The translations under genes were made by a program, and so were the position numbers. A DNA stretch of 64,000 nucleotides, taken from an uncultured Bacteroidota bacterium (GTDB taxonomy: Bacteria; Bacteroidota; Ignavibacteria; UBA10030; UBA6906). Position 1 is the first letter of the stretch. Every line of letters starts with the position of its first letter. The stretch lies in contig CAVZWW010000003.1 in assembly GCA_963779225.1 (NCBI GenBank), forward strand, positions 1,010,034 to 1,074,033. Reading direction: 5' to 3'. Shown piece by piece: positions 1 to 30,325 of this stretch. Below the pieces are notes generated by a model. It saw nothing but the letters and a program-made list of their open reading frames with translations, had not been told where the DNA came from and did not search any database.

Positions 1-1002
1 GTGGATCCTTCCACGCTGCTGGCGCCTGCGGAGAGCAAGCATCAATGGAGCCCCCGTATCGGCGTATCGTTCCCCATCACCGACAAGGGGATCATCCATT
101 TCTCATACGGTCACTTTTTCCAGATGCCGCCCTTCTCCTATCTCTACGCCAACCCGAACTTCAAATACAGCTTCTCCTCGGGGACGCCGACATTCGGGAA
201 TGCGGATCTGCACCCGCAGAGGACCGTCACGTATGAACTGGGTCTGCAGCAGCAGTTGATGGACAATCTTTCCTTCAACCTTACCGGATTCTACAAGGAT
301 GTGCGTGATCTTCTGGCGATGCAGCAGATCCGGATCAGCGGGGATGAAACGTACTACAAATATGTCAACAAAGACTACAGCAACGTCAAGGGGGTGACGT
401 TCTCGCTCACCAAACGGCGGACCGCAAGCGACATCGTTGGCGCCACACTGGACTACACGTACCAATCTGCCGAAGGGAACGAGACAAATGTCAACGCGTT
501 TTTTGTGGATCTCTCTTCCGGGCGACAGAGCGAGAAGGTGCCCGTCTATCTGGACTGGGATCAGTCGCACACCATCAACGGCACCGTGACGGTGGGGCAG
601 CCGAGCGACTGGAATGTCACGCTGGTAGGCCGGATTGGAACGGGGCTTCCCTACACGCCGCAGATCACGGAACAAACCGTCTACCTGCAAACCAACAGCG
701 GGCGCAAACCGCCGCAGACGCGTGTGGATCTGCTGGCCGACAAAACGTTTAACGTCGCAGGGGTGCGTTTGACCGCATACGTCAAGGTGTACAACCTCTT
801 CGACACCTTGAACGAGCGGTACGTCTACGATGATACCGGTCGTGCCACATATACGCTCGTGCAGAATCAGAATACCGCCCAGGAAACAGACAAGCTGGCC
901 ACGGAGATTCCGGGACTTCATCCGGCCAGCGAATGGTTCGTGCGGCCCGATTACTACCAACCCCCGCGGGAAGTGCGGCTTGGCGCCACCGTGGAATTCT
1001 GA
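1..1002 (+). CDS. TonB-dependent receptor (module 1), C-terminal barrel part; 5' end lies outside the window
   Basis: SPRIGVSFPITDKGIIHFSYGHFFQ, GNADLHPQRTVTYELGLQQ, VYNLFD and terminal PREVRLGATVEF beta-signal; closely parallels the intact receptor at 13643-16483. Confidence 0.9.
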   Translation: MDPSTLLAPAESKHQWSPRIGVSFPITDKGIIHFSYGHFFQMPPFSYLYANPNFKYSFSSGTPTFGNADLHPQRTVTYELGLQQQLMDNLSFNLTGFYKDVRDLLAMQQIRISGDETYYKYVNKDYSNVKGVTFSLTKRRTASDIVGATLDYTYQSAEGNETNVNAFFVDLSSGRQSEKVPVYLDWDQSHTINGTVTVGQPSDWNVTLVGRIGTGLPYTPQITEQTVYLQTNSGRKPPQTRVDLLADKTFNVAGVRLTAYVKVYNLFDTLNERYVYDDTGRATYTLVQNQNTAQETDKLATEIPGLHPASEWFVRPDYYQPPREVRLGATVEF

Positions 1003-1034
1003 CGGCAATGAAGAACGAAAAAGAAGAGAGAAGA

Positions 1035-4000
1035 ATGAAGAACAGGCGTAGTGTTCAACGGGTACGGGTTGTCGACGCTCATCGAGTACAGGCCGTCGAT
1101 GCTTCTGGAGTAGGCGTCGCCGACGCTTGCCGGACGCGGGGCATCGGTTCTTGGCGGATAGGGGTTATCCTTCTTCTGGTACTGCTTGCGGCGGGGAGGG
1201 TGGTGGCGGATGGCACCGATGAGAAGACTGCACGGGAACATCAGGCCGTCAAATCGTATATGGCGCGAACGCTGGGGACACCCGCCTATCAGCAGACGGC
1301 ACCTGCACCAACGGACGGGCTATCCAAATCGCGTGCCGGCGCGCTGGCCAAAGATGCCGCGGTAACGGCACAAGCGGACCGGAAGTCGTTCTTCATGAAC
1401 GGGAACCGGATTGCCACCCAGCTGTACAACTACGGCGGCATCGCTCCCGGATACGATGCTCTCCGCGGCGTGAACAATCTTGTCTGGCGCAATCTGGACT
1501 ACGCGTTCCAGTTCTGCCCGATCGTCGGCGCCTCGGTGCCCGATGCGCGTGATCCTTCCCGTCGTATACATATCATTTCGGACGCTCTGTGGGATTATCC
1601 GGCGCTCCGCGAGGTGAACCCCACAGGGGACACACTCTGGCAGTGGCAACCGCTGCCCGGATACGCCGATCCTGACCAGCCCCTCATGGCCTCCAACCCC
1701 GCCGATGACAAGGACGGAGATGGAAAGCCTGACAGCTGGCCGCGGACCTGGTACAACCCCGTCCTGGGCAAATATGTCTGGCCGGGATACCTCTCCCAGG
1801 ATGCGCCGAGTGCGGACCTGGAAGTGTTCTGGTCGATGGATGACCGTTTCAACATGGAGTTTCCGTACTACCCCTTCCCGGGAGATTCCACGCGCAGAGG
1901 AATCGGCCTGCAGGTGGATGGACGTGCGTTCCAGTGGAGCAATGCGCTGGCCGAGAACACCATCTTTTTCGTCTACACCATAACGAATACCAGTGAAAAG
2001 GATCTGGACAGCGTGTTCTTCGGGATCTACGGAGACCCCGATCTGGGCGGTGGAGCGCCCGAAAATACCGACGACAACGGTTTCTTCATCCCTCCGTATG
2101 ATTCCACAGGCCGCCTGGATGAGATTCCCGTGTACTCCCGGAGTCTTGTCTACTTCTGGGATCCTGACATGAAGGGGGCCCGCGGGCTTCCGCTCGGCTA
2201 TCTCGGGTGCAAATTTCTTGAGAGTCCCGGAAATCCGAACGACGGCATCGACAACGATGGAGACGGGATCATCGATGAGCGGCAGGATGACGGTATTGAC
2301 AATGACGGCGACTGGAGTGCGATATCAGATGACGTCGGCATCGACGGCGTCCCGAACACGCAGGATCAGGGGGAGTCGAACGGTGTTCCAGACGCCGGGA
2401 AACGGCTCGCTGACGGTTCACTGGATCCGCTCTATCCCGGCGAACCCAACTTCGAGCTCACCGACCTTGACGAGGCGGATCAGATCGGGCTCACCAGTTT
2501 CAACAGCTGGCCATGGAATTCGGACAAAATTTCCAACGACGAATCCATGTGGAACCGTTCCATTCCGCGGAATTTCGGTGCGATCCAGCAGAGTTCGGAC
2601 ATTGTCTTCATTTTTGGTTCGGGGTACATTTCCCTCAAGAAGGGAGAGACCAAGCGTATCTCCATGGCCCTGTTGCTCGCCGAGGATCTGGACGGGTTGT
2701 TGACGACGGCGAAAACCGTGCAGACGATTTATAACAAGAACTACCAGTTCTTCCGTCCGCCCATTACGCCGCACCTGACGGTGGTGCCGGATGACAAAAA
2801 GGTGACACTCTACTGGGACACCATAGCCGAACAGAGCGTAGACCCCATCACCGGAAAAGACTTCGAAGGGTATGTGATTTACCGCAGCATCGACAATGGT
2901 TTCAATGATGTGCAGACCGTGACCGACGGCAAGGGGGCGCGGTTCCTAACGGAACCCCTCAAGGATCTCGCGGGCCGGGAGGCAAAATTCGATGTCGCCG
3001 TGCGCGAGGAAACGTACACCGACGTGAACGGAAACGGGAAGTACGACTCTGGTGAACCGTTTGTCGATATCAACAAGGACGGACGCTGGTCGGAGGAGGT
3101 CGAGGATCCCTGGAAGGGATATCATCCCATACCATACCAGGACCGCGGCATCCAGTACTACCTGGGCAACAACCGTGGTCTTGTACATTCGTTCGTCGAC
3201 TCCAACAATGTGATCAACGGTCAGACGTACTATTATGCGGTCGTGGCATACGATCACGGCGACTCCGTCGGAATTCCCCCCACGGAGACCACGAAAAAGA
3301 TCACGGTGGATCCCATCACGTCGTTGTTCAACTTCGACGTCAATACCGCCATGGCGATACCGGGGCCGCGTGCAAGCGGTTATGTGCCGCCAATGGATGC
3401 CGATCTGGTCCGCAATCTGACACACGATACGGGCATCGGCACAGGGATTGTCAGCCCCCGGATTCTCAACGACCTGACCGTGCCCCGGGGAGGGGAATAC
3501 CGCATCTCTTTTGCGGATTCCTTCCAGCTCAACGGGAAGAAGGAGAAGGGGAAGAACTACTCCGTGCTGAATACGAATGCCATCACCGAAACCATCGTCG
3601 CGTTCGACACGAATTACTCGGCGCTCGGCCATGAGAATATCGCCGACGGCGAATCTTTCAGTGTGAAAGGACAGGACGGCACGACGTATGTGAACGAGAA
3701 AGACTACGTTGTCAACTATCAACGGGGTTCAGTACGCCGCACGGGCAACAGCGCGATGCCGAACAACGGTACGTTCACGGCCACGTACCGTTACTACCCG
3801 GTGTTCCAGAGCCGCGCACTCAAGAGCCAGGACTCCAATCCTGTTTTCGAAGGAGTCCTCCTGGCCATACAGGATCATCCGGAGTTGGCGTACGATTCAC
3901 TCCGCTCGAAGTGGATCAGCGGAAACTCCAATTTCGTTTATACCGCCCGGCTGACCCAGATCGGGCAACGGCGGAAGCTCTGGCCCGCGGACTATGAAAT

Positions 4001-4706
4001 CCGTTTTTCCGCGCAGAACATCGACACCGCGATGGTGGTGTCGGGGGGGCTGATCAAGATTCCGGTGCGGTATTCGGTAACCGACGTAACGCAGGGTACA
4101 CCATCTCGCATTCTCACGCTGTTGAACGAAAACTCTGCAAGCAGGGACAGGCAGTGGAGTCCCGGCGAGGAGATTGTTCTGTTCCGTCCCGGCTCCACCG
4201 GAGCCACGACGGACACGACCACCTGGGGTGTCATCGTCTCCAAACCCCCGGATACCAGCATAACCCCGCGTGTTCCCACGGATGGAGATGTTCTGCTGAT
4301 CCGGACCCGCCGGCCGTTTGGCACTGACGACGCCTTCACGCTGAAGACCGAAGCCGGAACGATGGATGCCGCCGTTGCGTCTTCGCGCATGGACCAGATA
4401 TACGTTGTTCCCAACCCGTACGTCGGGTACAGCACCATCGAACCGACCAACCGGCTGCCCGGGGCGACACGCGGTGAGCGGAGGATCTATTTTGAGAACC
4501 TCCCGCAGCGCTGCACGATCCGGATCTTCACGATCAACGGCGATCTGGTGCAGACGATCGAACACGACTCCGGTGTGGACAACGCGCGCGAATACTGGAA
4601 CCTCCTCAACCGGGACGGATTCGGCGTCGCGTACGGTGTCTATGTGGCACACCTTGACGCACCGGAGGTGGGGGAAAAGATCTTGAAGTTTGCGCTGATC
4701 AAGTAA
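1035..4706 (+). CDS. Large exported TBDR-partner protein (module 1): Ca-binding DxDxDG loops, FN3-like domain, beta-rich stalk, variant T9SS C-terminal domain
   Basis: ORF 933-4706; start uncertain (ATG 1008 or 1035); hydrophobic signal IGVILLLVLLAAGRVVA; NDGIDNDGDGIID repeats; FN3-like PPITPHLTVVPDDKKVTLYWD..FEGYVIYRS; C-terminus IYVVPNPY..IYFENLPQRCTIRIFTINGDLV..KFALIK. Confidence 0.85.
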   Translation: MKNRRSVQRVRVVDAHRVQAVDASGVGVADACRTRGIGSWRIGVILLLVLLAAGRVVADGTDEKTAREHQAVKSYMARTLGTPAYQQTAPAPTDGLSKSRAGALAKDAAVTAQADRKSFFMNGNRIATQLYNYGGIAPGYDALRGVNNLVWRNLDYAFQFCPIVGASVPDARDPSRRIHIISDALWDYPALREVNPTGDTLWQWQPLPGYADPDQPLMASNPADDKDGDGKPDSWPRTWYNPVLGKYVWPGYLSQDAPSADLEVFWSMDDRFNMEFPYYPFPGDSTRRGIGLQVDGRAFQWSNALAENTIFFVYTITNTSEKDLDSVFFGIYGDPDLGGGAPENTDDNGFFIPPYDSTGRLDEIPVYSRSLVYFWDPDMKGARGLPLGYLGCKFLESPGNPNDGIDNDGDGIIDERQDDGIDNDGDWSAISDDVGIDGVPNTQDQGESNGVPDAGKRLADGSLDPLYPGEPNFELTDLDEADQIGLTSFNSWPWNSDKISNDESMWNRSIPRNFGAIQQSSDIVFIFGSGYISLKKGETKRISMALLLAEDLDGLLTTAKTVQTIYNKNYQFFRPPITPHLTVVPDDKKVTLYWDTIAEQSVDPITGKDFEGYVIYRSIDNGFNDVQTVTDGKGARFLTEPLKDLAGREAKFDVAVREETYTDVNGNGKYDSGEPFVDINKDGRWSEEVEDPWKGYHPIPYQDRGIQYYLGNNRGLVHSFVDSNNVINGQTYYYAVVAYDHGDSVGIPPTETTKKITVDPITSLFNFDVNTAMAIPGPRASGYVPPMDADLVRNLTHDTGIGTGIVSPRILNDLTVPRGGEYRISFADSFQLNGKKEKGKNYSVLNTNAITETIVAFDTNYSALGHENIADGESFSVKGQDGTTYVNEKDYVVNYQRGSVRRTGNSAMPNNGTFTATYRYYPVFQSRALKSQDSNPVFEGVLLAIQDHPELAYDSLRSKWISGNSNFVYTARLTQIGQRRKLWPADYEIRFSAQNIDTAMVVSGGLIKIPVRYSVTDVTQGTPSRILTLLNENSASRDRQWSPGEEIVLFRPGSTGATTDTTTWGVIVSKPPDTSITPRVPTDGDVLLIRTRRPFGTDDAFTLKTEAGTMDAAVASSRMDQIYVVPNPYVGYSTIEPTNRLPGATRGERRIYFENLPQRCTIRIFTINGDLVQTIEHDSGVDNAREYWNLLNRDGFGVAYGVYVAHLDAPEVGEKILKFALIK

Positions 4707-4819
4707 GTGAGCACAGGGGAAGGGGATTGACGATTGACGCCCGGAGAGCTGAAATTGGTGATCGAAAGAGAGAGAACCACACGACGCATGAAACGAGATT
4801 TTCTGTTCATGGAGGATGT

Positions 4820-5881
4820 ATGAGAATCCCAAACCAGAGAAGGCATATTGCGATGATGCCCGCCGGACCGGGGACGAAGATGGTGATGCTGGTTATGCTG
4901 CTGTTTCTGGCGGCCCCGATGGTGCTGCCGCAGAATCTCACGAAAACCGGAACGTCTGCGGCCCCATTTCTCAAGATCGGCGTCGGCTCCCGCGCCCTGG
5001 GTATGGGCGGTGCATTTACCGCAACGGCCGATGACATCACCGCCATGTACTGGAATCCCGGCGGTCTTGCCCGCCTGTACTCCCGCGAGGCCGTGTTCAA
5101 CCATGTCCGGTGGTTCGCTGACGTGAATTACGACTTTGCCGCGTTCGCCACATACCTCCCCGGATTCGGAACGCTGGGGGCATTTGTGGATGTTCTCTCG
5201 ATGGATGACATGTTCGTGCGCACGGTTGAACAGCCGGAAGGGACCGGAGAGTTCTTCAACGCGGGTGCCATGGCCATCGGCCTCAGTTACGGGCGGGATC
5301 TGACGGACCAGTTCTCGATAGGGTTCAACGTGAAGTACCTCCGCGAGTATATCTGGAACATGGCCGCAACAGGTGTGGCGATGGACATCGGTACGATTTA
5401 CCGCATTCCCATTCTGAACGAGTTCCGGCTCGGCGCAAGCATCTCGAATTTCGGGACAAAGATGCGTCTGGAGGGGCGCGACAACCTGATGATTACCCAG
5501 ATCGGCGGTACGGAAGGGAATCTGATCAATACCGATGTCCAGCTGGATGAGTTTGACCTTCCTCTCCTGTTTCGCGTGGGCGTTGCCGCGGACGTGCTGA
5601 AAGCCGAAGAAACACGCCTGACCGTTGCGCTGGACGCGATCCATCCCAATGACAATACCGAGTATCTGAATACGGGCCTGGAGTTCGCCTGGAACGAGAT
5701 CGTGTTTCTCCGGGGAGGTTGGAAATCCCTCTTCGAACGGGATACCGAGCAGGGATTCACCGCGGGCGTTGGCCTGAACTACCGCATCCTGGGCGAGTTT
5801 ATGGTGAAGCTGGACTATGCCTACCAGGATTGGGGACGGTTGAAGAACGTGCACTATCTGACGTTCGGATTGAAATTCTGA
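4820..5881 (+). CDS. PorV/PorQ (UPF0164) family outer-membrane beta-barrel (module 1)
   Basis: GGAGGA SD at 4811-4816; KTGTSAAPFLKIGVGSRALGMGGA, YWNPGGLA and terminal YLTFGLKF are typical of the FadL-like PorV family. Confidence 0.85.
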   Translation: MRIPNQRRHIAMMPAGPGTKMVMLVMLLFLAAPMVLPQNLTKTGTSAAPFLKIGVGSRALGMGGAFTATADDITAMYWNPGGLARLYSREAVFNHVRWFADVNYDFAAFATYLPGFGTLGAFVDVLSMDDMFVRTVEQPEGTGEFFNAGAMAIGLSYGRDLTDQFSIGFNVKYLREYIWNMAATGVAMDIGTIYRIPILNEFRLGASISNFGTKMRLEGRDNLMITQIGGTEGNLINTDVQLDEFDLPLLFRVGVAADVLKAEETRLTVALDAIHPNDNTEYLNTGLEFAWNEIVFLRGGWKSLFERDTEQGFTAGVGLNYRILGEFMVKLDYAYQDWGRLKNVHYLTFGLKF

Positions 5882-5910
5882 CGGGCGGGACAGTATACCG
5901 GAGGTGCCTC

Positions 5911-6531
5911 ATGACTCAACGTTCTCTGCCACTCTTCTTTCTTCTCCTCATGCTGCCTGTCTTCTCGCGGTCGCAGACCGCAAGCGACGAGCTGGTGAAC
6001 GTGAAGGAGCTCATCCCCGATATTGCCATCGACCTCAAGTACAACACCGTCGACAACTTCCTGCATCAAAAAATGTACACGACGGACGAATGCCTGCTGG
6101 CGATGGGAACGGTGAAGCAATTGAAGAAGGTCCAGGATTCCCTCCGTACACTCGGTCTCGGACTGAAGATCTTTGACGGTTACAGGCCGCGGGCAGTGCA
6201 GTACCTCATGTTCGAGATCTTTCCGAACCCGGTCTACGTGGCCGACCCCGCCACGGGCTCGAACCACAACCGGGGTGGTGCAGTGGACCTGACGCTGGTG
6301 AACCTCGCGACCGGTCAGGAATTGCAGATGCCCACCGCGTTCGACTATTTCGGGAATGAAGCATCACATGGATGGACCATCGGCTTGAACCAGGAACAGA
6401 TCAACAACCGCGTCTTCCTGCTCACCATGATGGAAACAGTGGGCGGGTTTACACGATACGATGCCGAGTGGTGGCACTACGCATACTCACCGTCGCTGGC
6501 GAACCCGCTGCTGGATTTTCAAATGAAGTGA
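5911..6531 (+). CDS. D-Ala-D-Ala dipeptidase (peptidase M15D, VanX/DdpX family) with signal peptide
   Basis: FDGYRP, SNHNRGGAVDLTL (SxHxxGxAxD Zn motif), MPTAFD and EWWH; GGAGG SD; N-terminal MTQRSLPLFFLLLMLPVFSRSQ. Confidence 0.9.
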   Translation: MTQRSLPLFFLLLMLPVFSRSQTASDELVNVKELIPDIAIDLKYNTVDNFLHQKMYTTDECLLAMGTVKQLKKVQDSLRTLGLGLKIFDGYRPRAVQYLMFEIFPNPVYVADPATGSNHNRGGAVDLTLVNLATGQELQMPTAFDYFGNEASHGWTIGLNQEQINNRVFLLTMMETVGGFTRYDAEWWHYAYSPSLANPLLDFQMK

Positions 6532-6646
6532 CACGCGCAGCGGAGCGCTAAATGGGGAGGCCTGAATGATACATCCCCTGGGTCCGGACCGATGTCCGGC
6601 AACTTCGTGACTCCGCCGGCGGTCCATGAAATACGAAAGTTCCCCT

Positions 6647-8929: not shown

Positions 8930-8952
8930 CCCGGGGCATGCGCGATACGACA

Positions 8953-8987
8953 AGGCCCGCCTGCGCACGATGAGCGCAGGCGGGCCT
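8953..8987. terminator. Hairpin between convergent genes (probable bidirectional terminator)
   Basis: Perfect 14-bp stem AGGCCCGCCTGCGC / GCGCAGGCGGGCCT with a 7-nt loop; no clear U-tract. Confidence 0.6.
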
Positions 8988-9007
8988 CTGAGCGAGTAAC
9001 AGCCCTG

Positions 9008-10075: not shown

Positions 10076-10119
10076 ACGACCTCCAGAGGGATCCGTCACG
10101 ATCTTCGTTAGTGTTTCTC

Positions 10120-13614: not shown

Positions 13615-13642
13615 ACACAATCCCATCGGTTGAGTGAAATGT

Positions 13643-16483: not shown

Positions 16484-16604
16484 ATTGTACCTTTAGGATA
16501 ATGTGCAATGATTACGACCAGGGGAAACTCAGAAAGGGAACTTCTGGCATCTTCCCAACGAGTCCGTGGATACGGCGGGGGAACCTTGCTGCCGTCTTCA
16601 TAAA

Positions 16605-16633: not shown

Positions 16634-16791
16634 GCTGTGGCTTGATTATTTCCGTTAAGTTGTTAATTTCGTATACTGGTATTAGGGCAATTCTCACACC
16701 TGACAGGTCCGTCGGTTTGGACATGTTTCCGGGCCTGCTTTGCCCGGCACGCGATAATGATTCTATCACTCACAGACGTTCGGGAGGAGCA

Positions 16792-18276: not shown

Positions 18277-18554
18277 GCGAGAACCATCTGCATCTTTCAA
18301 CGAACGCCGGGGTCAGGTATACCGGGACAGTCCCGGTTGAGGCTGGATGCCGGTTGTTCTGTGGATCATTCGGTCGGAGGCAGACGAAGGTTCTCCCGGC
18401 AACCCTGTTCCACGACAGGAAGTCATCGATTCGCTCTCGGGTCGTGTCCCGCGAGAGAGGGAATACCCCCGTGTTCAGGGCAGAAGAGCGTTGTGGGGGA
18501 TCGTGTGTGTCAAACAGATGCTGTTGAATCACTCACCGATTTACAGGAGGAAAG

Positions 18555-20009: not shown

Positions 20010-20095
20010 TATGGCGCGGCAGATCTCGGGGCCTCCGGAGTCAAAGTGCCGGAAGGACCGGGACGATGCATCGTCAGAGATGTTGCAGAATACTC

Positions 20096-20127
20096 CAGCG
20101 AGGTCCCGCCCCGGCGGGACCTCGCTG
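20096..20127 (+). terminator. Strong GC hairpin downstream of the paralog pair (terminator or 3' stabiliser)
   Basis: Perfect stem CAGCGAGGTCCCGC / GCGGGACCTCGCTG with a 4-nt loop; no U-tract. Confidence 0.45.
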
Positions 20128-20402
20128 CGTGTACGCAGGTGCACCCCCGTTCCTATGAGCGCCGGCGATACGAACCGCCATGACCGTTGTCCATTTGCTA
20201 CGACAGTCCGCAAGAGGTCATGGCATCATTCATCCCTCCGAGCAGCGGAAGGACTTCGTGACCGTCATCCATCTGGATCCGGCCGCGTGTACACTGTCGT
20301 GTCTGTCACCCATGTGTCCGTCCGCTCTTTGGTTCCTCATTGAACTTCACGGCATTTTGCCGTAGGTTATTCCGGGAAGCAGAACAGAAAGTGGATTGCA
20401 GG

Positions 20403-22763
20403 ATGAGATCGTTCTTCTCTCTATCGGATGGTTGCTCCTCCGGGTTGCCCGCCATTGCGTGGATCGTGCCTGTCTGGTTGTTCATGGCAGGACCGGCAAT
20501 TGCGCAGGTCGACACCACCACGCATGGCTGGCCCGTTGCGCCGTTCTTCTCGACGCATCCGATCACCGGAGTATTCTGCGAGTTCCGCAATACGCTCACC
20601 AGCGATCATTTCCACAACGGCGTGGATATCCCCAGGGCGGACGGTACTCCGGTCTATCCCGTGTACGACGGAGTGGTGACAGCCATTGGAACAACAGCAA
20701 ATTCGGGGGACAACGCATACGTGCGGGTCAGATATTCCGTCAGCGGTCTCACGAAGAGCGACGCCTACGTCCACATCAACCCCAACCCGCTCCTGTATGT
20801 CGGAGGTCCGGTGGTCGCCTACCAGACGGTACTGGGGACCATTCTGCCGGGGCTCGGGCATACCCACTTCACCCACGGTCTCTCCGGTGCGGAGATGAAT
20901 GCCATCCGCCCGGTGGGAGGATTCACGCCCTACATCGACCTGTACCCGCCCCGCATCATGTCTGTCCGGTTTTTTCTGGACGAATCTTCGACGGAGTTTC
21001 TGGGCGGCCGTCTGAGCGGGCCCGTCGACATCCGCGTGCACATCCAGGAGACCAGCGCCGGCACGCCGTCCGACGTGAGCTCATCCACGTCGAACAACGG
21101 CACGTACATCGTGGGCTACAAAATTCTTTCCGCGGATCGCACAACCGTCGTCTATGAACCTCCCTCCGCCGGCGTCCGGTTCAGGTTTGACCGGCAGCCC
21201 TCAAACAACGACGTTCACCGGGTCTTTGCGTCGGGTTCCGATCTCTCGACCCACATCTATACGATCACCAACGGGAACGGCGCCGATATGGTGAACAGCA
21301 CAAAATCGGTGCCGAACAATTTTTGGAACACCGAGACGTTGCCGGTCGGATCCTATACAGTGATGGTCTTTGCCGAGGACACACGCCGGCTCACCGACAC
21401 GGCGTATCTCCCTGTCACCGTGGAACGCGGTGATCTCGTGGCGCCCGCGCCCCCCGTGTTGAAGGCCGTGCTCAACGACAGTACGAACCGGGTGACGATC
21501 TCCTGGTATCCGAATACGGAACCGGATCTTCTGGGGTACCGCCTCTTCTATTCTCTTGACGGGACGGTGTGGACACAGCGTGACAATGAGACGCGCCTCA
21601 CCCGATTCACCACATCTGTTTCATATGACAACATCAGCGGAGGGAGGACTTTCTTCCGGCTCGCGGCGGTGGACTCCGCGTCCCCCACCAATGTCAGCCA
21701 GTACAGCGATGTGTACGGGCTCCGGCTCAACAGTTCCACAACGAAGACACTGATCGTAGACGGTTTTGACAGGACAGAAGGGTCCGGCAGTTATCATCTG
21801 CCGTCGCACCCGTTTGTGATGACGAATGGATTCTCGGTGGCCGGCGATTTCAGTTCGTGTGCAAACGAGGCGCTTCTGGACGGGTCGGTCGGACTCGGAT
21901 CATATGCCGTGGTACTCTGGGTTCTCGGCGACGAATCCACGTCCGATGAAACCTTCTCCTCTGCAGAACAGGGATTGGTGCAGGTGTTTCTGCAGCACGG
22001 GGGAAAGCTCTGTGTGAGCGGGTCGGAAATCGGATACGATCTGGACAGAACTTCCGGACCCTCACAGGCGGACCGGGATTTCCTGCATGATTTTCTCAAG
22101 ACGGCATATGTGGCCGATGATGCCAACGACCCTACGGCCACAGGAGTATCGGGTTCATTGTTCGAGGGACTCTCGCTGCGATATGGAATCGTGGCCGAAG
22201 GTGCTCCGTATGAAGAGGATTGGCCGGATGTGCTGGCACCGATGAACGGGGCGGGTGCTTCGATGTCGTACGGTGCGAGCGGTACGGCAGGTACCGCCGG
22301 CATCACATTCTCGGGTCTTTTCCCCGGCGGCGTGCGTCCGGGTGCCGTGATGGTTCTGGGCTTTCCGTTCGAGACGATCACGGAGAGAGGAAAACGTGAT
22401 TCACTGATGTCCCGGATATTCACCTTTTTTGGGGGTGTCACGGGGGTGAATCACTCCATTCTGCCTCCCCCTGTTGCGGGCACCTTTGCGCTTGAACAAA
22501 ACTACCCCAACCCGTTCAATCCAACGACGGCGATAAGGTATCAAATCGGTGGGGATGGAGATCGGGGGTCGGGGGCCGGCCATGTGAGGCTGGCGGTCTA
22601 CGATGTTCTGGGCCGCGAAGTGGCACTGCTGGTAGACGAGGTGCAGGAATCGGGGCTTCACGATGTGACATGGGATGCCCGGAATGTCGCGAGCGGTGTC
22701 TACTACTACCGCCTCACAGCCGGATCGTCAGTTGCCGTACGGACGATGACGGTGCTGAAATGA
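20403..22763 (+). CDS. T9SS-secreted M23-family metallo-endopeptidase with FN3-like and alpha/beta accessory domains
   Basis: DHFHNGVDIP (HxxxD), GTPVYPVYDGVV, YVHI and HTHF (HxH); FN3-like VTISWYPNTEPDLLGYRLFY; EQNYPNPFNP CTD; start uncertain. Confidence 0.8.
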   Translation: MRSFFSLSDGCSSGLPAIAWIVPVWLFMAGPAIAQVDTTTHGWPVAPFFSTHPITGVFCEFRNTLTSDHFHNGVDIPRADGTPVYPVYDGVVTAIGTTANSGDNAYVRVRYSVSGLTKSDAYVHINPNPLLYVGGPVVAYQTVLGTILPGLGHTHFTHGLSGAEMNAIRPVGGFTPYIDLYPPRIMSVRFFLDESSTEFLGGRLSGPVDIRVHIQETSAGTPSDVSSSTSNNGTYIVGYKILSADRTTVVYEPPSAGVRFRFDRQPSNNDVHRVFASGSDLSTHIYTITNGNGADMVNSTKSVPNNFWNTETLPVGSYTVMVFAEDTRRLTDTAYLPVTVERGDLVAPAPPVLKAVLNDSTNRVTISWYPNTEPDLLGYRLFYSLDGTVWTQRDNETRLTRFTTSVSYDNISGGRTFFRLAAVDSASPTNVSQYSDVYGLRLNSSTTKTLIVDGFDRTEGSGSYHLPSHPFVMTNGFSVAGDFSSCANEALLDGSVGLGSYAVVLWVLGDESTSDETFSSAEQGLVQVFLQHGGKLCVSGSEIGYDLDRTSGPSQADRDFLHDFLKTAYVADDANDPTATGVSGSLFEGLSLRYGIVAEGAPYEEDWPDVLAPMNGAGASMSYGASGTAGTAGITFSGLFPGGVRPGAVMVLGFPFETITERGKRDSLMSRIFTFFGGVTGVNHSILPPPVAGTFALEQNYPNPFNPTTAIRYQIGGDGDRGSGAGHVRLAVYDVLGREVALLVDEVQESGLHDVTWDARNVASGVYYYRLTAGSSVAVRTMTVLK

Positions 22764-23761
22764 GGACCCTGAAATGCATACCCGGCCTTCTCCTGATGTA
22801 TTTTTCTCTGTTCTCGCCGGCGACAGCGCAGCGGAACGGAGAGGCGTCTGCGAGAGTAACTATCCATGCGGGGGCCAGGAAATGGCCGGAATCCAACCGG
22901 TGGATGGCAACCGTGACGCGGAGCGGGGAAGAGGGGACATACACGTTGGAGAAAGAAGTTCCATACGGTGCGCCCTACCCGGCCATTTTGACCATTGCTC
23001 CTGACGGCCGGAGCCTGGTGGTGGATTCCTTTGACGGGGTGGTGGAATTGTATGACGGTGCGGGCGTCCTTGTTTCCGCATGGAAACCCCTTGGAGAACG
23101 GGGACCGGATCACGAGCGGATTTTGAAATGCCTTCCCGCCAAAGATGGAGTATTGTTCCTCTGTTCTGAACCCGGGTCGGGCAGCGCCCGTTTGATCAGG
23201 ACCGACAAAAGTCTGGAGAGACTCTGGTCTCGAGATCTCTCCGGTCAATCAGCTGGAGAACTGGCGGTGTCGGGGGACGGCAGTATCGTTGCCGTTTGTT
23301 CGTATTCATCCGAACCCGAATTTCTCTTTGAGACGCTGATAATGAATGACGGTGGATCGGTTCTTCGCGCTTTGCCGTCCCTGTTCCGCACGGCAGATTT
23401 TGACGTCACTGATGATCGATACCTTCTGACAGATGGCCGTAGTGTGGTCACCGGCATGCTCCGGGGTGAATCGACCGTTGCCGTGTGGCGTCTTCCGGAG
23501 GGGGAGAATGTTGTAAGTAGTGCCCGCCTGATTCCCGGTGGCGGTTTTGTACTGGTTCTCCAGCGTGTGCAGACAAATGCCGACGGTCTGCTTTATGTAG
23601 AACCGGAACTCCTCGCTTTCGACAGTGCATCTCGGATTATCGGAAGACGAAAACTGGATGGAAAGTCAGAGCGCCAGGCAGCACTTCTTCTGGATTCCGA
23701 TACGATCTCGGTCGTGGTTGGCGAGGCGTCCTTCCAATATCGTCTAAGTGATTTGAAATAA
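22760..23761 (+). CDS. Exported hypothetical protein, possibly a beta-propeller; translationally coupled to the M23 gene
   Basis: ATGA overlap with the upstream stop; signal-like MRTLKCIPGLLLMYFSLFSPATAQ; LAVSGDGSIVAV-type blades. Confidence 0.65.
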   Translation: MRTLKCIPGLLLMYFSLFSPATAQRNGEASARVTIHAGARKWPESNRWMATVTRSGEEGTYTLEKEVPYGAPYPAILTIAPDGRSLVVDSFDGVVELYDGAGVLVSAWKPLGERGPDHERILKCLPAKDGVLFLCSEPGSGSARLIRTDKSLERLWSRDLSGQSAGELAVSGDGSIVAVCSYSSEPEFLFETLIMNDGGSVLRALPSLFRTADFDVTDDRYLLTDGRSVVTGMLRGESTVAVWRLPEGENVVSSARLIPGGGFVLVLQRVQTNADGLLYVEPELLAFDSASRIIGRRKLDGKSERQAALLLDSDTISVVVGEASFQYRLSDLK

Positions 23762-23796
23762 ACAGTTTATGAAGTAAACGGTCCACATTCTTCTTC

Positions 23797-23825
23797 TTGA
23801 CACTTCAGAAGAGGTTTACTATATT
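23797..23825 (+). promoter_or_regulatory. Candidate sigma70 promoter for module 3 (TTGACA-N17-TATATT)
   Basis: TTGACA at 23797-23802, 17-nt spacer, TATATT at 23820-23825, in an AT-rich gap about 120 nt before the TBDR start. Confidence 0.7.
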
Positions 23826-23944
23826 GACTTTACTGATCGCCTTGGGCAGTCCTGGTTTTCTCATGACTTCCTCATCCACAGGCAATCCACAAGTTTCTTC
23901 TTTCCCCGGTTGTTGATCAGCATTCTACTATTTCAGGAGCATTT

Positions 23945-26900
23945 ATGAAGGTGTTTGCTACTCTGTGCACCGCTGCCCTGATCCTCCTCACCACAGTCGC
24001 ATTTTCCGGAACGACCGGCAAGCTTGCCGGGACGGTGAAGGACTCCAAGACGGGCGAACCGCTGCCCAGCGCGAACGTCGTCATCGAAGGAACAACGCTC
24101 GGCGCAGCAACGAATCCTGACGGCTATTTCGCCATTCTCAACATCCCCCCCGGAAGTTACCGTGTTGTGGCGAACCTTGTGGGATACAAACAGGCCTCGG
24201 CGGTCAATGTCCGTGTGGACATCGACCAGACGACCGATCTGAACCTCCGGATGAACGAAGAAGCCATCACCGGCGAAGAAGTGACGGTGGTAGCTTCCCG
24301 GCCGGTGGTGCAGAAGGACGTAGCCGCCAGCCGTGCGAACATTGAAGCGGGCGAAATCCAGAAACTCCCCGTGACAAGCGTGCAGAGCGTGATAACGCTG
24401 CAGGCGGGCATCCAGGGTGATCTGGTGATTCGCGGGGGCGGGAGAGACCAGACCGCATTCGTCATGGATGGCATGATGTTGCGCGACGAGCGTACCAACC
24501 AGCCATTCACAGGAATCAGTCTGAGTTCAATTCAGGACGTGCAGGTTCAAACCGGTGGTTTCAGTGCCGAATACGGAAACATCCGTTCGGGCGTAGTAAA
24601 TGTTGTAACGCGCGAAGGAGGGAGATCGAACTACAGCTTCAATGTCATCGGGCGCTACCGGCCGGCGGCACCGAAGCATTTCGGTGCGTCCATCTATGAT
24701 TTCAACTCGTACTGGGTCCGGCCGTACGTTGACGATGCCGTGGCCTGGACCGGCACCTCGACTTTGGGTTCTGATGGACAGCCGGTGTGGGATCAGTGGA
24801 CACAGGCACAGTATCCGGATTTCGAGGGGTGGAACAGCGTCTCGCAGAAGTTGCTTGCAAGCGGTGTCACTCTCTCTCCGGCGGCGGCACAGGAGGTCTG
24901 GTTGTGGGAGCATAGACGGCAGGCGGAAGTCAACGCCCCCGACTGGGATGTGGATATGGGATTTGGAGGTCCTGTCCCGTTCATTTCCGAGCAATTGGGT
25001 AATCTCCGTTTCTTTGCCTCGTATCGCCAGCAATCCACGCAATACCTTGTTCCTCTTTCCCGGAATGGCTACCAGGAATACAACGGTCAGTTGAAGATCA
25101 CCTCCGACGTCGGACCGGGTATGAAGCTGATGGTCTCCGGCCTGATCGCAAAACTGGATGGCACGAACGACAACAACGTCGGGAATGCGGGGATGTTCCG
25201 CACCGCGTCCGATATCGCCGCGTCACTCACCAGTGCGAACAGTGTTTCCGGCTACGTTGACGCACGGTTCTTCGGGACGGACTACTGGGCCCCGACCACG
25301 ACAAATATCAAGATGTTTGGTGCAAAGTTCTCGCATGCAATCAGCTCATCGACCTTCTACGAAGCAACGGTTCAAACATATTTCCAGGGCACCGATACGA
25401 GCCCGGGAACCCTGAGGGATACGGAGAAGAAGTTCCTCTTCGGGAACAACTACTATGTGGATGTGGCCCCGCTGGGTTATATGCCCTATCCCAGTACGGG
25501 AATTACCGGGTTGCGCATGGGTGTGGGTATGAGCAACTCGCGCGACAGGAGCCGCGTACAGTCGACGAATCTGAGATTTGACATGACCAGTCAGCTGGAC
25601 AAGTACAACCAGGTGAAGGCGGGCCTGGAGTTCAGCTACACGGATAACAATGTCGAATCCTACAATGAAGACATTGTTCTCCCGACCGGCCGTTACGACG
25701 GGAGCTGGCACAACTATCCGCTCCGCGGCGCGCTCTACTTGCAGGACAAGCTGGAATTTGAAGGCATGATTGCCAATCTCGGTGTGCGTGTCGAATACCT
25801 GAATCCGAACGGGGACTGGATCGATTACCAGGAGGATCCATTCAACAGTGTCTTTGCGGGGGGGGATCTCTACCAGGTCTTCCCGGTAATCTCCGCGCCG
25901 GCGACACTGACTGTAAGCCCCCGTCTGGCCATCGCATTCCCCATTTCCGACGAAGCGAAGTTGTTTTTCAACTACGGGCATTTCCGTCAGGTGCCGGATC
26001 CGACCAACGTGTTCATGCTGTCGCGGTACACGGACAACGAACAGGTCCGGAGTATCGCCGATCCCGGAGCGCCATTCCCGATGACCGTCGCCTACGAGCT
26101 TGGTTTTGAGCACAGTCTGCTTGACGAGTATCTGCTCCGCGCAGCCGCGTACTACAAGGATGTTTCCAACCAGGGGAAGACCGTCACGTATGTCGGCCGC
26201 AACTCGCTGGTGAATTATACGCAGCGCACCAGCAATTCGTATCAGGACATCCGCGGTTTCGAGCTTACGGTCAGCAAGAACCGCGGAAAGTGGGTCCAGG
26301 GGTTCATCAACTACACCTACAGTGTTGTTACGGCGGGGTACTTCGGTCTCGGGTACCAATACGAGAGTGCGGCGGACCAGCGGAACTATGAACGGACGAA
26401 CGTGTACCAGGAGAAACCGATTCCGCAGCCGTACGCACGGGCGAACATCGATTTCTTCACGCCGCCGGAATTCGGACCCGAGGTTATCGGCCTGAGCCTC
26501 CTCGGCGACTGGCGTTTGAATTTCATCGGATCCTGGTCTGCCGGCCGCTACGACACATGGGCGGGCGGGGGAACCATCCAGGGGCTGCAGTACAACGTGC
26601 AGTGGAAAGACTACTGGAACGTGGATATGCGTCTCAGCAAGAATTTCCAGTTCGGCAACGCGAACCTGCAGTTCTTCATCGACGTTTCCAATCTCCTGAA
26701 CTTCCGGTACTTCCCCGGGACCTACGGGTTCTTCGGCAATCGTGACTACGACAACTACATGAAGTCACTCCACCTGCCGGAATTTCCCGCGCAATTCGCG
26801 ACGGCGATCGGCTATCAGAATATTGCGGGTGAGGACCGGCCCGGAGAAGTGCGAAAAGAAGGTGTGCCCTACCAGCCGATTGTTGCCCTTCTGCAAATGG

Positions 26901-27127
26901 CCGATCTCGCCAAGCCGGCGAATCAGCAGTCGCGCCCCTTCTATTACGTGGCAGAAGTCAACCGGTACTACCGCTTCGTCAATGGTCAGATGCAGGAAGT
27001 GGACCAGGGGACGCTGGATCAGGTCCTGAAGGACAAAGCGTACATCGACATGCCGAATCAGGAAGCCTTCACCTTCCTGAATCCGCGCAATATCTTCTAC
27101 GGCATTCGTTTGTCGTTCGACTTATGA
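23945..27127 (+). CDS. TonB-dependent receptor with N-terminal carboxypeptidase-regulatory-like domain (module 3; non-SusC type)
   Basis: AGGAG SD; GTTGKLAGTVKD..GEPLPSANV; plug IRGGG..GGFSAEYGNIRSGVVN; ALYLQDKLEF; terminal PRNIFYGIRLSFDL. Confidence 0.92.
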   Translation: MKVFATLCTAALILLTTVAFSGTTGKLAGTVKDSKTGEPLPSANVVIEGTTLGAATNPDGYFAILNIPPGSYRVVANLVGYKQASAVNVRVDIDQTTDLNLRMNEEAITGEEVTVVASRPVVQKDVAASRANIEAGEIQKLPVTSVQSVITLQAGIQGDLVIRGGGRDQTAFVMDGMMLRDERTNQPFTGISLSSIQDVQVQTGGFSAEYGNIRSGVVNVVTREGGRSNYSFNVIGRYRPAAPKHFGASIYDFNSYWVRPYVDDAVAWTGTSTLGSDGQPVWDQWTQAQYPDFEGWNSVSQKLLASGVTLSPAAAQEVWLWEHRRQAEVNAPDWDVDMGFGGPVPFISEQLGNLRFFASYRQQSTQYLVPLSRNGYQEYNGQLKITSDVGPGMKLMVSGLIAKLDGTNDNNVGNAGMFRTASDIAASLTSANSVSGYVDARFFGTDYWAPTTTNIKMFGAKFSHAISSSTFYEATVQTYFQGTDTSPGTLRDTEKKFLFGNNYYVDVAPLGYMPYPSTGITGLRMGVGMSNSRDRSRVQSTNLRFDMTSQLDKYNQVKAGLEFSYTDNNVESYNEDIVLPTGRYDGSWHNYPLRGALYLQDKLEFEGMIANLGVRVEYLNPNGDWIDYQEDPFNSVFAGGDLYQVFPVISAPATLTVSPRLAIAFPISDEAKLFFNYGHFRQVPDPTNVFMLSRYTDNEQVRSIADPGAPFPMTVAYELGFEHSLLDEYLLRAAAYYKDVSNQGKTVTYVGRNSLVNYTQRTSNSYQDIRGFELTVSKNRGKWVQGFINYTYSVVTAGYFGLGYQYESAADQRNYERTNVYQEKPIPQPYARANIDFFTPPEFGPEVIGLSLLGDWRLNFIGSWSAGRYDTWAGGGTIQGLQYNVQWKDYWNVDMRLSKNFQFGNANLQFFIDVSNLLNFRYFPGTYGFFGNRDYDNYMKSLHLPEFPAQFATAIGYQNIAGEDRPGEVRKEGVPYQPIVALLQMADLAKPANQQSRPFYYVAEVNRYYRFVNGQMQEVDQGTLDQVLKDKAYIDMPNQEAFTFLNPRNIFYGIRLSFDL

Positions 27128-27187
27128 GATCGGTTCCGGCTGCAACGGGGACCGTGACAATACTGAGAATTCCTACGTGAGGCAACA

Positions 27188-29297
27188 ATGAAGAATCTCG
27201 TCACTTTCGCAAGCATCGTTCTTCTTCTCGTGCTTGCCCCTTCGGCGTCCCGTGCGCAGGGTTATGAAACCCAGTGGATGTCCGTGGGTTCGTTGCATAA
27301 CTGGTATGCGAACATGGGATGCGAGAAAGAAGAAGGGCATGCGCTGAAACAGCAAGACGGTCTGCAGTGGGAGGCGATCTACCTCAACCAGGACATGCAG
27401 GCCGCGAAAGGACTCTGGATCGGGACGACAAATTTCCAGGACGCGGACGGCACGGTGTATCCCAAGAAAGTCATCACCAACGGGCCGCGGTATAGCGGGA
27501 ACAACGTCTTCTTCCCCCAGAAATTCGAATTGGTATCGAAGTTCGATCCGCCTGTCGTTAGCGTCGATGGGGTCCTTTCATACGGAAAGCTGGTGGATGT
27601 GAAGCGGGTGGATCCCGCGATCACCGGTGACCGGATGATCATTAATGAAGTGACCACCTCGATCGGCCTGAAAATGATCAGGAAGATCTTTCAGTTCAGC
27701 CAGGAGTACCACGATGACTATATCGTGAGCGACTACCGCTTCATCAATGAATCCGGGAAGCGTCTGGATTCGGTGACGGTGTATTTCCAGTACCGGTTGT
27801 CGGTGTGCGCCACCACGCGATATGTGATCGGCAATGCCACCGGCTGGGGGATCAATGCCATGCTCGACACGCGCGGGGATGGAGTGAAGAATGACGCTGA
27901 CGACGCGGTGACTGTGCCGGGTGTCTACAGTGCCCCGCACATGCGCATCCAGTATGTGTATCATGGCAAGTATCCGGGCTTCACCTCCTATGACAATCTT
28001 GGGGGACCTATCTGGGTTCCCGCATCCGTCGCCAATTACGGAGACCCCGCCGACACGGTGGGGCGCCTGGGTGCCGCGCAGTTCGTGGGGGTTGCCACAC
28101 TGCACGCCGACAGGTCGGCTACGGACACCACCGATGACCTGGCGCAGCCGTCGACCACATCATTTGAGGGTTCGGACGAATCGCTGCAGCAGCCGGATGC
28201 CGACATGTTCAACGCGCCCCGTATGGCGGCCAAATGGGATTGGATGACGAAAGGTCACGTCAACCCGCGGCATGCCGACAAAGTGGAGCCGGCAGGGAAA
28301 ATTCAGCGAACCGACAGGGGATCCGGCGCTTGGCACGCCGGGAGGATTTTCCAATGCCAACGGATACGGGCCCTACACGCTTGAACCCGGGCAGGCTTTT
28401 CATATCGTGATGGCCGAGGGGGCTTCGGCGTTGAGCCGGGAGAAGCAAATTTCCGTGGGACGTGCGTACAAAGCTGCACCCAGCCCCGCCACCGCCAAGA
28501 TCAAGAATGAAGCCTTTTTGACAGGAAAGGACTCTCTCTTCCAGGTATTCCGCCGGGCGATAGCCAACTTCAAGACGGGTTGGCAGCTTGCCGAGGCGCC
28601 GCGTCCCCCGAAAGTGTTCACCGTAACATCGCAGGGAGACAAGATCGCCCTCTCCTGGGATCTGTACGACCCGGGAGACCCGAACGTCAAGGGATTCCGT
28701 CTGTACCGTACCGTGGGAAAGTATGACGCCCCCGACACTCTTATCGCCGATCTCCCCGGTTCAGCCCGCGGGTACAACGATGTGAGCGCCGTCCGCGGCC
28801 AGCAGTATTTCTATTACCTTCTCGTTGTCGGTGATCCGGCCTCCAACACCGGAGGAGCCCTGACGCCTCCGGGGATTGCCCTTACGAGCAGCCGGTATTA
28901 TGCCCAGACCTTCGACCCCGCATATCTGCGGCGCCAGGCGGGTGACCAGGACACCACAAATACGTGGGGCCCTGACAAGAACGGCCCCTGGACGATGAAT
29001 GACATCCGCATTGTTCCGAATCCCTACAGCATCAGTTCCAATCCCTCGACGCTCAGGTTTTCCGAGGCGCCTGACCGGATCTTTTTCTTCAACATCCCCG
29101 GCTACTGCAAGATCAGAATCTTCACGGAGCTGGGTGAACTGGTCAAGGAAATCGACCACACGAACGGGAGCGGGGACGAATACTGGAACTCCATTACGTC
29201 TTCCAACCAGGTGGTGGTCAGCGGCATCTACATCGTGGTGTTTGAGAACACCAACACCGGGGAGCGGGTGATCAAGAAATTGTCCGTGATTCGCTAA
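27188..29297 (+). CDS. TBDR-partner protein (module 3) with variant T9SS CTD; split by one extra base near 28295-28301 (702 aa when repaired)
   Basis: ORFs 27188-28384 and 28272-29297 join as ..KVEPAGK|FSEPTGDP.. if one base is removed from GGGAAAA; FQFSQEYHDDYIV, GYGPYTLEPG, FN3-like domain and IRIVPNPY..FFNIPGYCKIRIFTELGELV CTD match partners 1 and 2. Confidence 0.8.
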
Positions 29298-29314
29298 CGA
29301 GAATCGGGGTTGCC

Positions 29315-30325
29315 ATGAGAACGACCGTTGTAGTTTTGGTGATTGTGCTTTGTTGTGCCGTGGCTCTTCCCTCGTCCGCGGTGGCGCAGAAGAAGCTCGC
29401 GCAGACCGGAATGAAATTCCTGAACATCCTGCCGGACGCGCGCGCCATTGCTCTCGGTGAAGCATATACAGCTGTGGAAGGATCGGCATCCACGCTGTTC
29501 TTCAATACATCCAGCATGGCACGTCTGAAGGGATTTACAAGCGTCTTTCTCGCACGGACCAACTGGATCGCGGATATGAGCCACATGTATGCCGCGGCCG
29601 CATTCAGCCCGTATGACGGAGAATACGGCGTGATCGGGTTCTTCTTCCAGTCGGTGGATTATGGAACATTTGAGGAAACCATCCGGTCAACGAACGATCG
29701 CGGGTATCTTGATCTTGGCACATTCAAGCCGACGGGCATCATGTTCGGGGTTGGTTATGCGCGCGCGCTCAACGACAAATTCTCGGTCGGCGGTAATGTG
29801 AAGTATGTCCGCCAGTCGCTTGGCGATGCCACGAATGAACTGGCGGCCGATGGCACTCCCATAAAAGTGTCGAATACCACCAGTGTGTTTGCCTTTGATT
29901 TCGGCATCCTGTACAGAACCGGTTTCAAGAGTCTGAACTTCGGCATGACGGTCCGGAATTTTGCGAAAGAAGTGGTATACCAGAAGGAAGGGTTCCAGCT
30001 GCCGCTCACGTTCAGGATCGGCGTGTCGATGAACGTGCTCGACCTGACCGACATCGAACCACAGATGCACCAGTTCCTGGTCGCCGCAGACGCAGAACAT
30101 CCCCGCGACTTCCCGGAGATGCTGCGAGTGGGAGGCGAATACAGATTCCTGGATATCCTCTCCCTGCGGGTCGGCTATGTGTCATCGGCCGATGAGTATG
30201 GTGTGTCGTACGGTGCCGGCGTGCGCAAGGATTTCGACTCATTCGGTTTCGGCTTTGATTATGCCTATGTGCCGTTCGGCGTATTTGACGCCGTACACCG
30301 TTTCTCTTTCCAGTTCTCGTTGTAG
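29315..30325 (+). CDS. PorV/PorQ (UPF0164) family outer-membrane beta-barrel (module 3)
   Basis: Signal peptide; KLAQTGMKFLNILPDARAIALGEAY, FSVGGNVKY, LPLTFRIGV and FDYAY..VHRFSFQFSL. Confidence 0.85.
   Translation: MRTTVVVLVIVLCCAVALPSSAVAQKKLAQTGMKFLNILPDARAIALGEAYTAVEGSASTLFFNTSSMARLKGFTSVFLARTNWIADMSHMYAAAAFSPYDGEYGVIGFFFQSVDYGTFEETIRSTNDRGYLDLGTFKPTGIMFGVGYARALNDKFSVGGNVKYVRQSLGDATNELAADGTPIKVSNTTSVFAFDFGILYRTGFKSLNFGMTVRNFAKEVVYQKEGFQLPLTFRIGVSMNVLDLTDIEPQMHQFLVAADAEHPRDFPEMLRVGGEYRFLDILSLRVGYVSSADEYGVSYGAGVRKDFDSFGFGFDYAYVPFGVFDAVHRFSFQFSL

Follow-up and report, generated by a model that had tools for sequence, protein, structure and literature searches.

Why should a gene for a TonB-dependent receptor, a long gene for a protein of no named family and a gene for a barrel of the PorV/PorQ family stand together, in this order, three times in one stretch of DNA? 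This question is raised by the window analysed here, a stretch of 64,000 nucleotides (contig CAVZWW010000003.1, positions 1,010,034 to 1,074,033) from an uncultured bacterium of the class Ignavibacteria in the phylum Bacteroidota. We call each set of three genes a module and the product of its middle gene the partner. The partner ends in a variant C-terminal domain (the variant tail), which is distantly related to the tails of proteins exported through the T9SS (type IX secretion system). Our best explanation, which we hold with roughly even confidence, is that each module encodes a nutrient-uptake unit, in which the T9SS would export the partner and its own barrel would hold it at the cell surface, next to the receptor.

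The repeated gene order had been pointed out in a first-pass annotation of the window, and the listing of open reading frames (ORFs) and the family scans agree with it at all three places. Module 1 lies on the plus strand. Its receptor gene starts upstream of the window (full gene G000:C3:1008273-1011035, where G000 is this genome), and the C-terminal 333 aa are seen at 1-1002 (PF00593 barrel, E 5.6e-25). The partner follows as a longest ORF of 1257 aa at 933-4706, with no Pfam family and with the variant tail at about 4374-4703 (tail profile E 2e-37), and then the barrel, whose longest ORF spans 4727-5881 (216.6 bits on the PorV/PorQ family model NF033709, cut-off 90). A signal-like segment starts about 150 nt into this last ORF, and the true starts of both partner and barrel are probably later than the longest-ORF starts. 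Module 2 is on the minus strand and comprises a receptor of 946 aa (16483-13643; PF13715, PF07715 and PF00593), a partner of 1168 aa (13626-10120; no Pfam family, 1484 homologues) and a barrel (10123-9008; NF033709 208 bits), with an overlap of 4 nt between barrel start and partner stop. Module 3, again on the plus strand, has a receptor of 1060 aa (23945-27127; PF13715 and PF07715), a partner that occupies two frames (27188-28384 and 28272-29297; tail profile E 3e-32) and a barrel of 336 aa (29315-30325; NF033709 193 bits).

Of the two pieces of the module 3 partner, the first has a signal peptide, and the second, which lacks one, has an FN3-like part and the variant tail. The open frame has 405 aa versus 690-739 aa in six cited orthologues among the 25 matches listed. 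Because these orthologues from related genomes keep single frames, the partner is a single gene, and a frameshift within the overlap 28272-28384 interrupts it. This shift of frame is possibly an assembly error or the mark of a pseudogene; an assembly error is possible because porU and porV on contig C2 are likewise frameshifted in this assembly. The three modules are paralogous, their similarity being far higher than chance would give. Identity amounts to 38% between partners 1 and 2 (over 1175 columns), 50% between barrels 1 and 2 (E 1e-111), 29% between barrels 1 and 3 (E 3e-31) and 25% between receptors 2 and 3 (over 972 columns, E 5e-68).

The first-pass annotation called the module triplicated, which describes the window correctly and understates the genome (5.3 Mb, 3 contigs, 100% complete), where 15 modules are present. 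A whole-genome six-frame scan found a T9SS-type tail on 162 ORFs at E < 1e-3, and 20 of these carry a strong variant tail (E < 1e-17). For 15 of the 20, the same strand carries a PorV-family barrel at a distance of up to 400 nt and also a receptor at up to 1500 nt. The barrel gene stands immediately downstream of the variant-tail gene in all 15 modules, and stop and start frequently overlap. Inside 14 modules, intergenic gaps range from -4 to 96 nt where the starts are clear, a spacing that is operon-like. About half of the receptors of the genome (13 of 28 plug-domain matches) sit in modules. The PorV/PorQ family model gives 32 matches in the genome, about 21 of them above the cut-off, and 23 of the matching places were inspected with our own ORF calls and profiles.

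Some further arrangements were seen at these places. At L014 (G000:C3:2931435-2936235), the gene for a variant-tail protein of 519 aa precedes a tandem pair of diverged PorV-family barrels; the place has no receptor, and the T9SS translocon gene SprA lies about 10 kb away at C3:2946100. Upstream of module 1 and outside the window (L016:3236-8181), two FG-GAP repeat proteins with T9SS tails stand immediately before the receptor, and one of them has a borderline variant tail (E 1e-18 to 3e-20). The sister modules L003 and L004 carry an extra ORF right after the barrel (L003:6438-7898, minus strand, 486 aa; L004:10486-11970, plus strand, 494 aa). The extra ORF of L003 resembles a FadL/BamG-like barrel weakly (72.5 bits on the BamG model, cut-off 250), and that of L004 matched no Pfam family.

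Family scans describe the module receptors as an N-terminal CarboxypepD_reg-like domain, a plug and a barrel. Receptor 2 matches both PF07715 and PF00593 and belongs to the TonB-dependent receptors. Receptor 1, cut by the window edge, matches PF00593 only; receptor 3 matches PF07715 only, with no barrel-domain model at E <= 0.01, and aligns with receptor 2 over the barrel. On the SusC/RagA model (TIGR04056, cut-off 368) receptors 2 and 3 reach 83 and 56 bits and align by the N-terminal part alone, which indicates, in line with the first-pass annotation, that module receptors are not of the SusC/RagA type. The plug motif GxFSAEYG..SGVVN that it had listed is seen in the alignment of receptors 2 and 3, and we take it to be an ordinary TonB-receptor plug motif and not a distinctive signature. 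In a FastTree phylogeny of 31 receptors from this genome, all 15 that belong to modules group together with the receptor of locus L013, and only one non-module receptor is nested among them. This nested receptor (G000:C2:269022-271568) may be the remnant of a module whose partner and barrel were lost.

The partners are the least familiar component. They have a Sec-type (type-I-like) signal peptide without lipobox, and their length varies from 589 to 1277 aa across modules, with a highly variable middle region. In module 2, the signal peptide is followed by a beta-rich N-domain with an Asp-rich insert, an FN3-like domain at about 561-700, a variable beta-rich region at 701-1060 and the tail at 1062-1168. 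The Asp-rich insert interrupts the N-domain in the long forms of the partner, and P565, W580 and Y600 of the FN3-like domain are invariant among the 15 paralogues. Among orthologues, conservation of the tail (0.76) equals that of the N-domain, versus 0.55 for the variable region. No Pfam family matches any of the 15 partners, except for PF18962, which touches the tails of three (best E 8.6e-4). No Pfam domain is recorded for the best 120 of the 1484 homologues of the module 2 partner, and every source-given name among the homologues is 'hypothetical'. Moreover, the partner profile had no match among PDB sequences at E <= 0.1. The protein-atlas clusters nearest to the homologues (P0062 and P0164) are likewise 'hypothetical', and the nearest named cluster is fn3. 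AlphaFold models of a short partner (pLDDT 76.6, pTM 0.62) and of the module 2 partner (pLDDT 65.5, pTM 0.47; residues 720-1060 at 77-93) are of moderate quality, and both are almost all beta.

The variant tail has about 105 residues and the consensus VVPNPY..[insert]..RxIxFxNLPxxCTIRIFTxxGxLVxTIxH...W.L...AxGVYxYxV...GKFAIIK. Ordinary type-A tails of this genome read QNYPNPFNPxTxIxFxLP...KMMLLK. The two profiles align over 61 columns in the last two thirds (hhalign probability 97.3%, E 1.6e-11), and the variant has 7-20 extra residues after the PNP motif, which in module 2 (residues 1066-1095) are modelled at low confidence. Judged from these alignments, the variant tail is distantly homologous to the type-A C-terminal domain of T9SS cargo and differs from it by an insertion. 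It stays below the type-A cut-offs of PF18962 and TIGR04183 (the module 3 tail gives 16 bits on the latter, cut-off 23), whereas flanking cargo genes exceed the PF18962 cut-off. Partner tails also give low-scoring matches to the PorZ model, at its C-terminal end. In the window family scans at E <= 0.01, neither a type-B tail nor a PorP_SprF barrel was found among partners or barrels.

A T9SS core, consisting of SprA, PorU, PorZ, PorV and PorQ, is present elsewhere in the genome. The canonical PorV (242.5 bits, just below the cut-off of 250) and PorQ (235 bits, above its cut-off) lie outside the modules. The first-pass proposal that the partner is exported by the T9SS thus agrees with the kinship of the tail to type A and with a complete T9SS core in the genome; export itself is predicted. 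There are two places with porU and porV. At G000:C2:12903-17380 (L017), PorU reaches 820 bits with a frameshifted end and PorV is spread over three frames. At G000:C3:3745843-3748285 (L015), near the end of contig C3, the intact PorV-like barrel of 242.5 bits stands beside PorU-like fragments. This duplication suggests indel errors or a duplicated contig end.

The three window barrels (217, 208 and 193 bits) are members of the PorV/PorQ family, and seven scanned barrels, those of the window, of three further modules and of L013, give 146-222 bits on its model. All seven remain below the equivalog cut-offs for PorV (NF033710, 250 bits), PorQ (NF033711, 220 bits) and PorV2 (NF052325, 325 bits), with scores of 61-104 bits and one lower exception. 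The window barrels reach 74-79 bits on PorV, 81-89 on PorQ and 35-104 on PorV2, and that of module 1 gives 74 bits on PorV and 81 on PorQ. The best solved relative of the module 2 barrel is PorV of F. johnsoniae (chain 6h3i_F, E 2.9e-12). Receptor-linked barrels form one clade (SH-aLRT 92) in the quick tree only. The only firm groupings are the sister pairs of modules 1 and 2, L011 and L012, and L003 and L004, and module 3 joins the last pair.

Conservation in other genomes was surveyed with a scan of species-representative genomes and an orthologue alignment (A1), in which 529 relatives were found and 78 loci obtained. The record titles of almost all loci read Ignavibacteria, Ignavibacteriales or Melioribacteraceae, and one reads 'Caldithrix sp.'. 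A receptor is directly upstream in 75 of the 78 and a barrel is present in 74; in the three and four remaining cases the sequence ends before the position of the flanking gene. The order of the triad is hence kept in every testable locus, and the first-pass claim of a separate PorV-like barrel for each partner, directly downstream of it, holds there as in the 15 modules of this genome. At one of these loci (L082), the barrel found is that of a tandem second module. Outside these groups, 14 loci were taken from 14 genomes that represent other families of the phylum; 13 of them have the full triad, and the remaining one (L101) has partner and barrel only. Two loci in other genomes have altered arrangements: the order is receptor-barrel-partner in L105 (genome G005), and in L108 (genome G018) an extra ORF of about 595 aa lies between receptor and partner.

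The tail reaches further still. Its profile (A4) matches in 209 of 401 genomes sampled across the phylum (E <= 1e-12), including 96 of 98 of the window's own class, and is absent from the sampled genomes of families f21 (0/87), f22 (0/28) and f25 (0/7). The orthogroup of the short partner (589 aa) has named homologues in Calditrichia, candidate division KSB1 and Marinimicrobia, with identities of 55-60%. Among 1.84 billion proteins, its profile found 6516 cluster representatives at E <= 1e-3, of which 2874 remain at E <= 1e-10.

The three genes diverge in step at two scales. Over the 78 loci, the identity of the receptor drops from 95 to 32%, that of the partner from 94 to 38% and that of the barrel from 95 to 44%. 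Within the genome, distances over the 15 modules are correlated, with Mantel r of 0.79 for receptor and barrel, 0.71 for receptor and tail and 0.56 for barrel and tail (each p 2e-4), and the congruence of the components that the first-pass annotation had put forward as a check is thus found.

The loci around the modules give hints of function. No match to SusD (PF07980 or PF14322) exists in the whole genome, no partner matches a SusD family and no SusD gene follows any receptor, as the first-pass annotation had noted for the window receptors. Genes after the barrels are catabolic and differ in each module: a GH94 with a GH144-like enzyme that has an ordinary tail; a pair of GH63-like hydrolases; peptidases of the M20 and M14 families; formylglutamate-amidohydrolase-like proteins, accompanied by a racemase and a DctM-type transporter; a PIG-L deacetylase; and a BNR/sortilin-type tail protein. 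With such catabolic, module-specific neighbours, these loci look like utilisation loci and resemble polysaccharide utilisation loci. Around the window modules (5719-6531, 20340-22763, 33300-49037 and 55846-58794), the enzymes are murein-directed. They include an M15 D-Ala-D-Ala dipeptidase, an M23-like protein with tail, a GHL10 protein with tail and an NlpC/P60+SH3 protein. In addition, there are an enolase like L-Ala-D/L-Glu epimerase (MR_MLE), a class-A beta-lactamase/S11-like (Beta-lactamase2) protein, an Amidase_3 and a GH3 fused to a beta-lactamase-fold domain. Going by family names, this set resembles a peptidoglycan utilisation island and may serve the uptake of cell-wall fragments.

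According to our model, the partner would pass the inner membrane by its Sec signal peptide and then the outer membrane via the T9SS, which would recognise the variant C-terminal domain. In ordinary cargo the tail is cut off, with coupling to lipopolysaccharide; this domain, by contrast, would stay on the protein and dock, on the extracellular side, on the PorV/PorQ-family barrel that the module itself encodes, in the manner of the PorU and PorZ tails. The barrel would thereby tether the beta-rich partner beside or over its receptor. The variable domains of the partner would catch a module-specific substrate (a glycan, a peptide or a murein fragment) and pass it to the receptor, which would import it in a TonB-dependent manner. 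From export onward, this mechanism is built on three precedents, each as described in the part of the source available to us: PorU and PorZ do not lose their tails, which remain attached to PorV and PorQ (PMC10202324), type-B cargo is anchored by PorP-like barrels encoded next door (PMC9143113), and the FadL-family barrel BamG sits against BamA, with a surface protein held in place by the loops of BamG (PMC12578637). The partner as a 'lid' on its receptor, as the first-pass annotation pictured it, is something that we infer. A stronger version, which we put forward tentatively and consider somewhat doubtful, is that the modules represent a third architecture of TonB-dependent uptake complexes. 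This would be a stable outer-membrane trio in which a beta-rich cap, delivered by the T9SS and not a lipoprotein, keeps its tail and is bolted beside the transporter by a dedicated FadL/PorV-family barrel.

Several other readings of the same genes have to be weighed. The partner could be exported by the T9SS and tethered to its barrel, and still act as a binding protein or enzyme upstream of uptake, with no stable receptor complex and no cap, much as surface glycan-binding proteins or surface enzymes do in polysaccharide utilisation loci. The multi-domain, almost all-beta models with an FN3-like domain, the fn3 atlas cluster as nearest named neighbour and the great variation of length and middle region between modules would all suit such a protein, and L101, with partner and barrel and no receptor, and L013, with receptor and barrel and no partner, would be natural variants of it. 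The nearly invariant order receptor-partner-barrel with gaps of few nucleotides is less easily accommodated, as is the co-divergence of receptors with barrels and tails; moreover, no other candidate for a cap exists in this SusD-free genome. We consider this reading rather unlikely, though the least unlikely of the rivals.

Two more distant readings concern the other components. That the barrel is a co-regulated channel of FadL type for a small or hydrophobic product, and binds no tail, is unlikely. PorV-family barrels do belong to the FadL family, weak matches to Toluene_X (FadL) occur, and L003 and L004 carry further ORFs, that of L003 being weakly FadL/BamG-like. However, such a channel would not account for a barrel placed directly after the variant-tail gene in every one of the 15 modules, frequently so close that its start overlaps the preceding stop, or for a tail class that is nearly confined to the neighbourhood of these barrels (15 of 20), and the best solved match is PorV, which binds such tails. 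Even less likely, indeed very improbable, is that the receptor serves export, as Oar of Myxococcus does for the protease PopC, and that the module is a secretion device for the partner. Because the partner has a T9SS-type tail and the genome a complete T9SS, a second export route would be unnecessary, and the genes that follow the modules encode cytoplasmic or periplasmic catabolic enzymes and transporters. What can be said for this idea is that the receptors have a CarboxypepD_reg-like N-terminal domain and are of non-SusC type, and that the requirement of a TonB-dependent transporter for protein secretion is on record (PMC6434023, in the part available).

The nutrient-uptake reading itself has to face a number of observations that weigh against it or against parts of it. 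SusD is a helical tetratricopeptide repeat protein, and since the partner models are almost all beta, the models indicate that the partner is not structurally equivalent to SusD. Occurrence does not follow a simple rule of exchange either: SusD is found in 23 of 98 genomes of the window's class and the variant tail in 96 of 98, family f29 has SusD in 60 of 61 genomes and the variant tail in 44 of 61, and in family f21 neither is found in 87 genomes (0/87). Congruent distances could stem from duplication of whole modules alone, without physical co-adaptation. The careful maximum-likelihood tree contains no resolved clade of receptor-linked barrels (support < 80), and the module 3 barrel, with only 34.7 bits on PorV2, is less uniform in the equivalog comparison than the others are. 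In this genome, 5 of the 20 variant-tail proteins lack a barrel or receptor as a neighbour; the six-frame scan places the ORFs that lack a full neighbour set at C3:809251, 1006234, 1516588, 2097316 and 2933413. In L013 the receptor is followed directly by the barrel, with no partner in between. Expression gives a weak hint: contigs of a sediment RNA library are 90-95% identical to pieces of all three module 2 genes; they represent a relative's copy, and carry-over of DNA is possible. None of 24 sequencing runs (23 DNA, 1 RNA) contains half of the sampled sequence words.

These observations bear most directly on the first-pass idea that the module is a functional replacement for SusD. Against its simple form stand the almost all-beta models of the partner and the many genomes that have both SusD and the module. 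Since the two coexist, the module is better described as an alternative to SusD than as a strict replacement. We also dropped the notion that SusD and the module exclude each other, as both occur together in several families, f29 among them, where both are common.

If the stronger version is true, the trio would be the main 'utilisome' of Ignavibacteria, and by the named homologues it would also exist in Calditrichia, KSB1 and Marinimicrobia, as an alternative to SusCD or its forerunner, and the T9SS would gain a general role in building nutrient-uptake machines. If the nutrient-uptake reading is true, the T9SS would have the new task of putting uptake complexes together, beyond the release of enzymes or adhesins, and there would be a third case in which a cognate barrel keeps a tail, after PorZ-PorQ/PorU-PorV and SprB-SprF. 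It would also explain polymer feeding in a large branch of Bacteroidota and in neighbouring phyla. The bacteria concerned, whose SusD proteins are few or absent, occur abundantly in sediments, groundwater and bioreactors. The partner family is large and carries no annotation at all; naming it would improve the annotation of thousands of genomes and allow locus-based prediction of substrates outside the SusCD world.

Full-text searches, with supplementary files outside their scope, found no description of triads of a receptor, a tail protein and a PorV-like barrel, and nothing on PorV in Ignavibacteria, Calditrichota, KSB1 or Marinimicrobia. In the available part of the Caldithrix genome paper, TonB-dependent receptors are named in connection with B12 and thiamine only. 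The module touches two known kinds, complexes of a receptor and a surface protein (SusCD, BtuBG) and T9SS proteins anchored by a barrel; the combination of the two, together with the partner family, appears to be undescribed.

The closest known systems share some features with the module and differ in others. Like SusC/SusD, it has a receptor with a CarboxypepD_reg-like N-domain followed by the gene for a surface protein, and it occurs in many diverged copies per genome inside substrate-specific catabolic loci. Unlike in SusC/SusD, the receptor fails the SusC/RagA model, the partner is no SusD, no lipoprotein and almost all beta, and a third gene, that of the barrel, is needed. BtuB-BtuG resembles the module in one respect: there, a TonB-dependent transporter is capped by a beta-rich surface protein other than SusD (PMC10404256, in the part available), as predicted for the partner here. 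However, BtuG is a lipoprotein that takes the lipoprotein route and has neither a T9SS tail nor an anchor barrel. BamA-BamG-BamH offers a parallel for the barrel: as far as the available part of PMC12578637 goes, a 14-stranded FadL-family barrel sits on a larger barrel and its loops hold a surface protein, an arrangement that we predict for the module. In contrast to the module, that complex is a biogenesis machine and no uptake unit, BamH is a lipoprotein, and the window barrels score weakly on the BamG model (16-31 bits, cut-off 250).

Two further likenesses are found within the T9SS itself. In SprB-SprF and PG1035-PorP, cargo is anchored at the surface by a dedicated neighbouring barrel (PMC9143113, in the part available), and the same is predicted here. 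The module barrel differs in belonging to the PorV/PorQ family and the module tail in being a type-A variant and not type B; moreover, the available part of that source describes no link to a TonB-dependent receptor. In PorZ-PorQ and PorU-PorV, a type-A-like tail is kept and bound to a barrel of the PorV/PorQ family (PMC10202324, in the part available), which is what we predict for the partners, whose tails show weak similarity to the end of the PorZ model on its C-terminal side. Those pairs are single-copy parts of the secretion machine and are present elsewhere in this genome, whereas the module barrels fall below every equivalog cut-off, occur in many copies and are linked to receptors.

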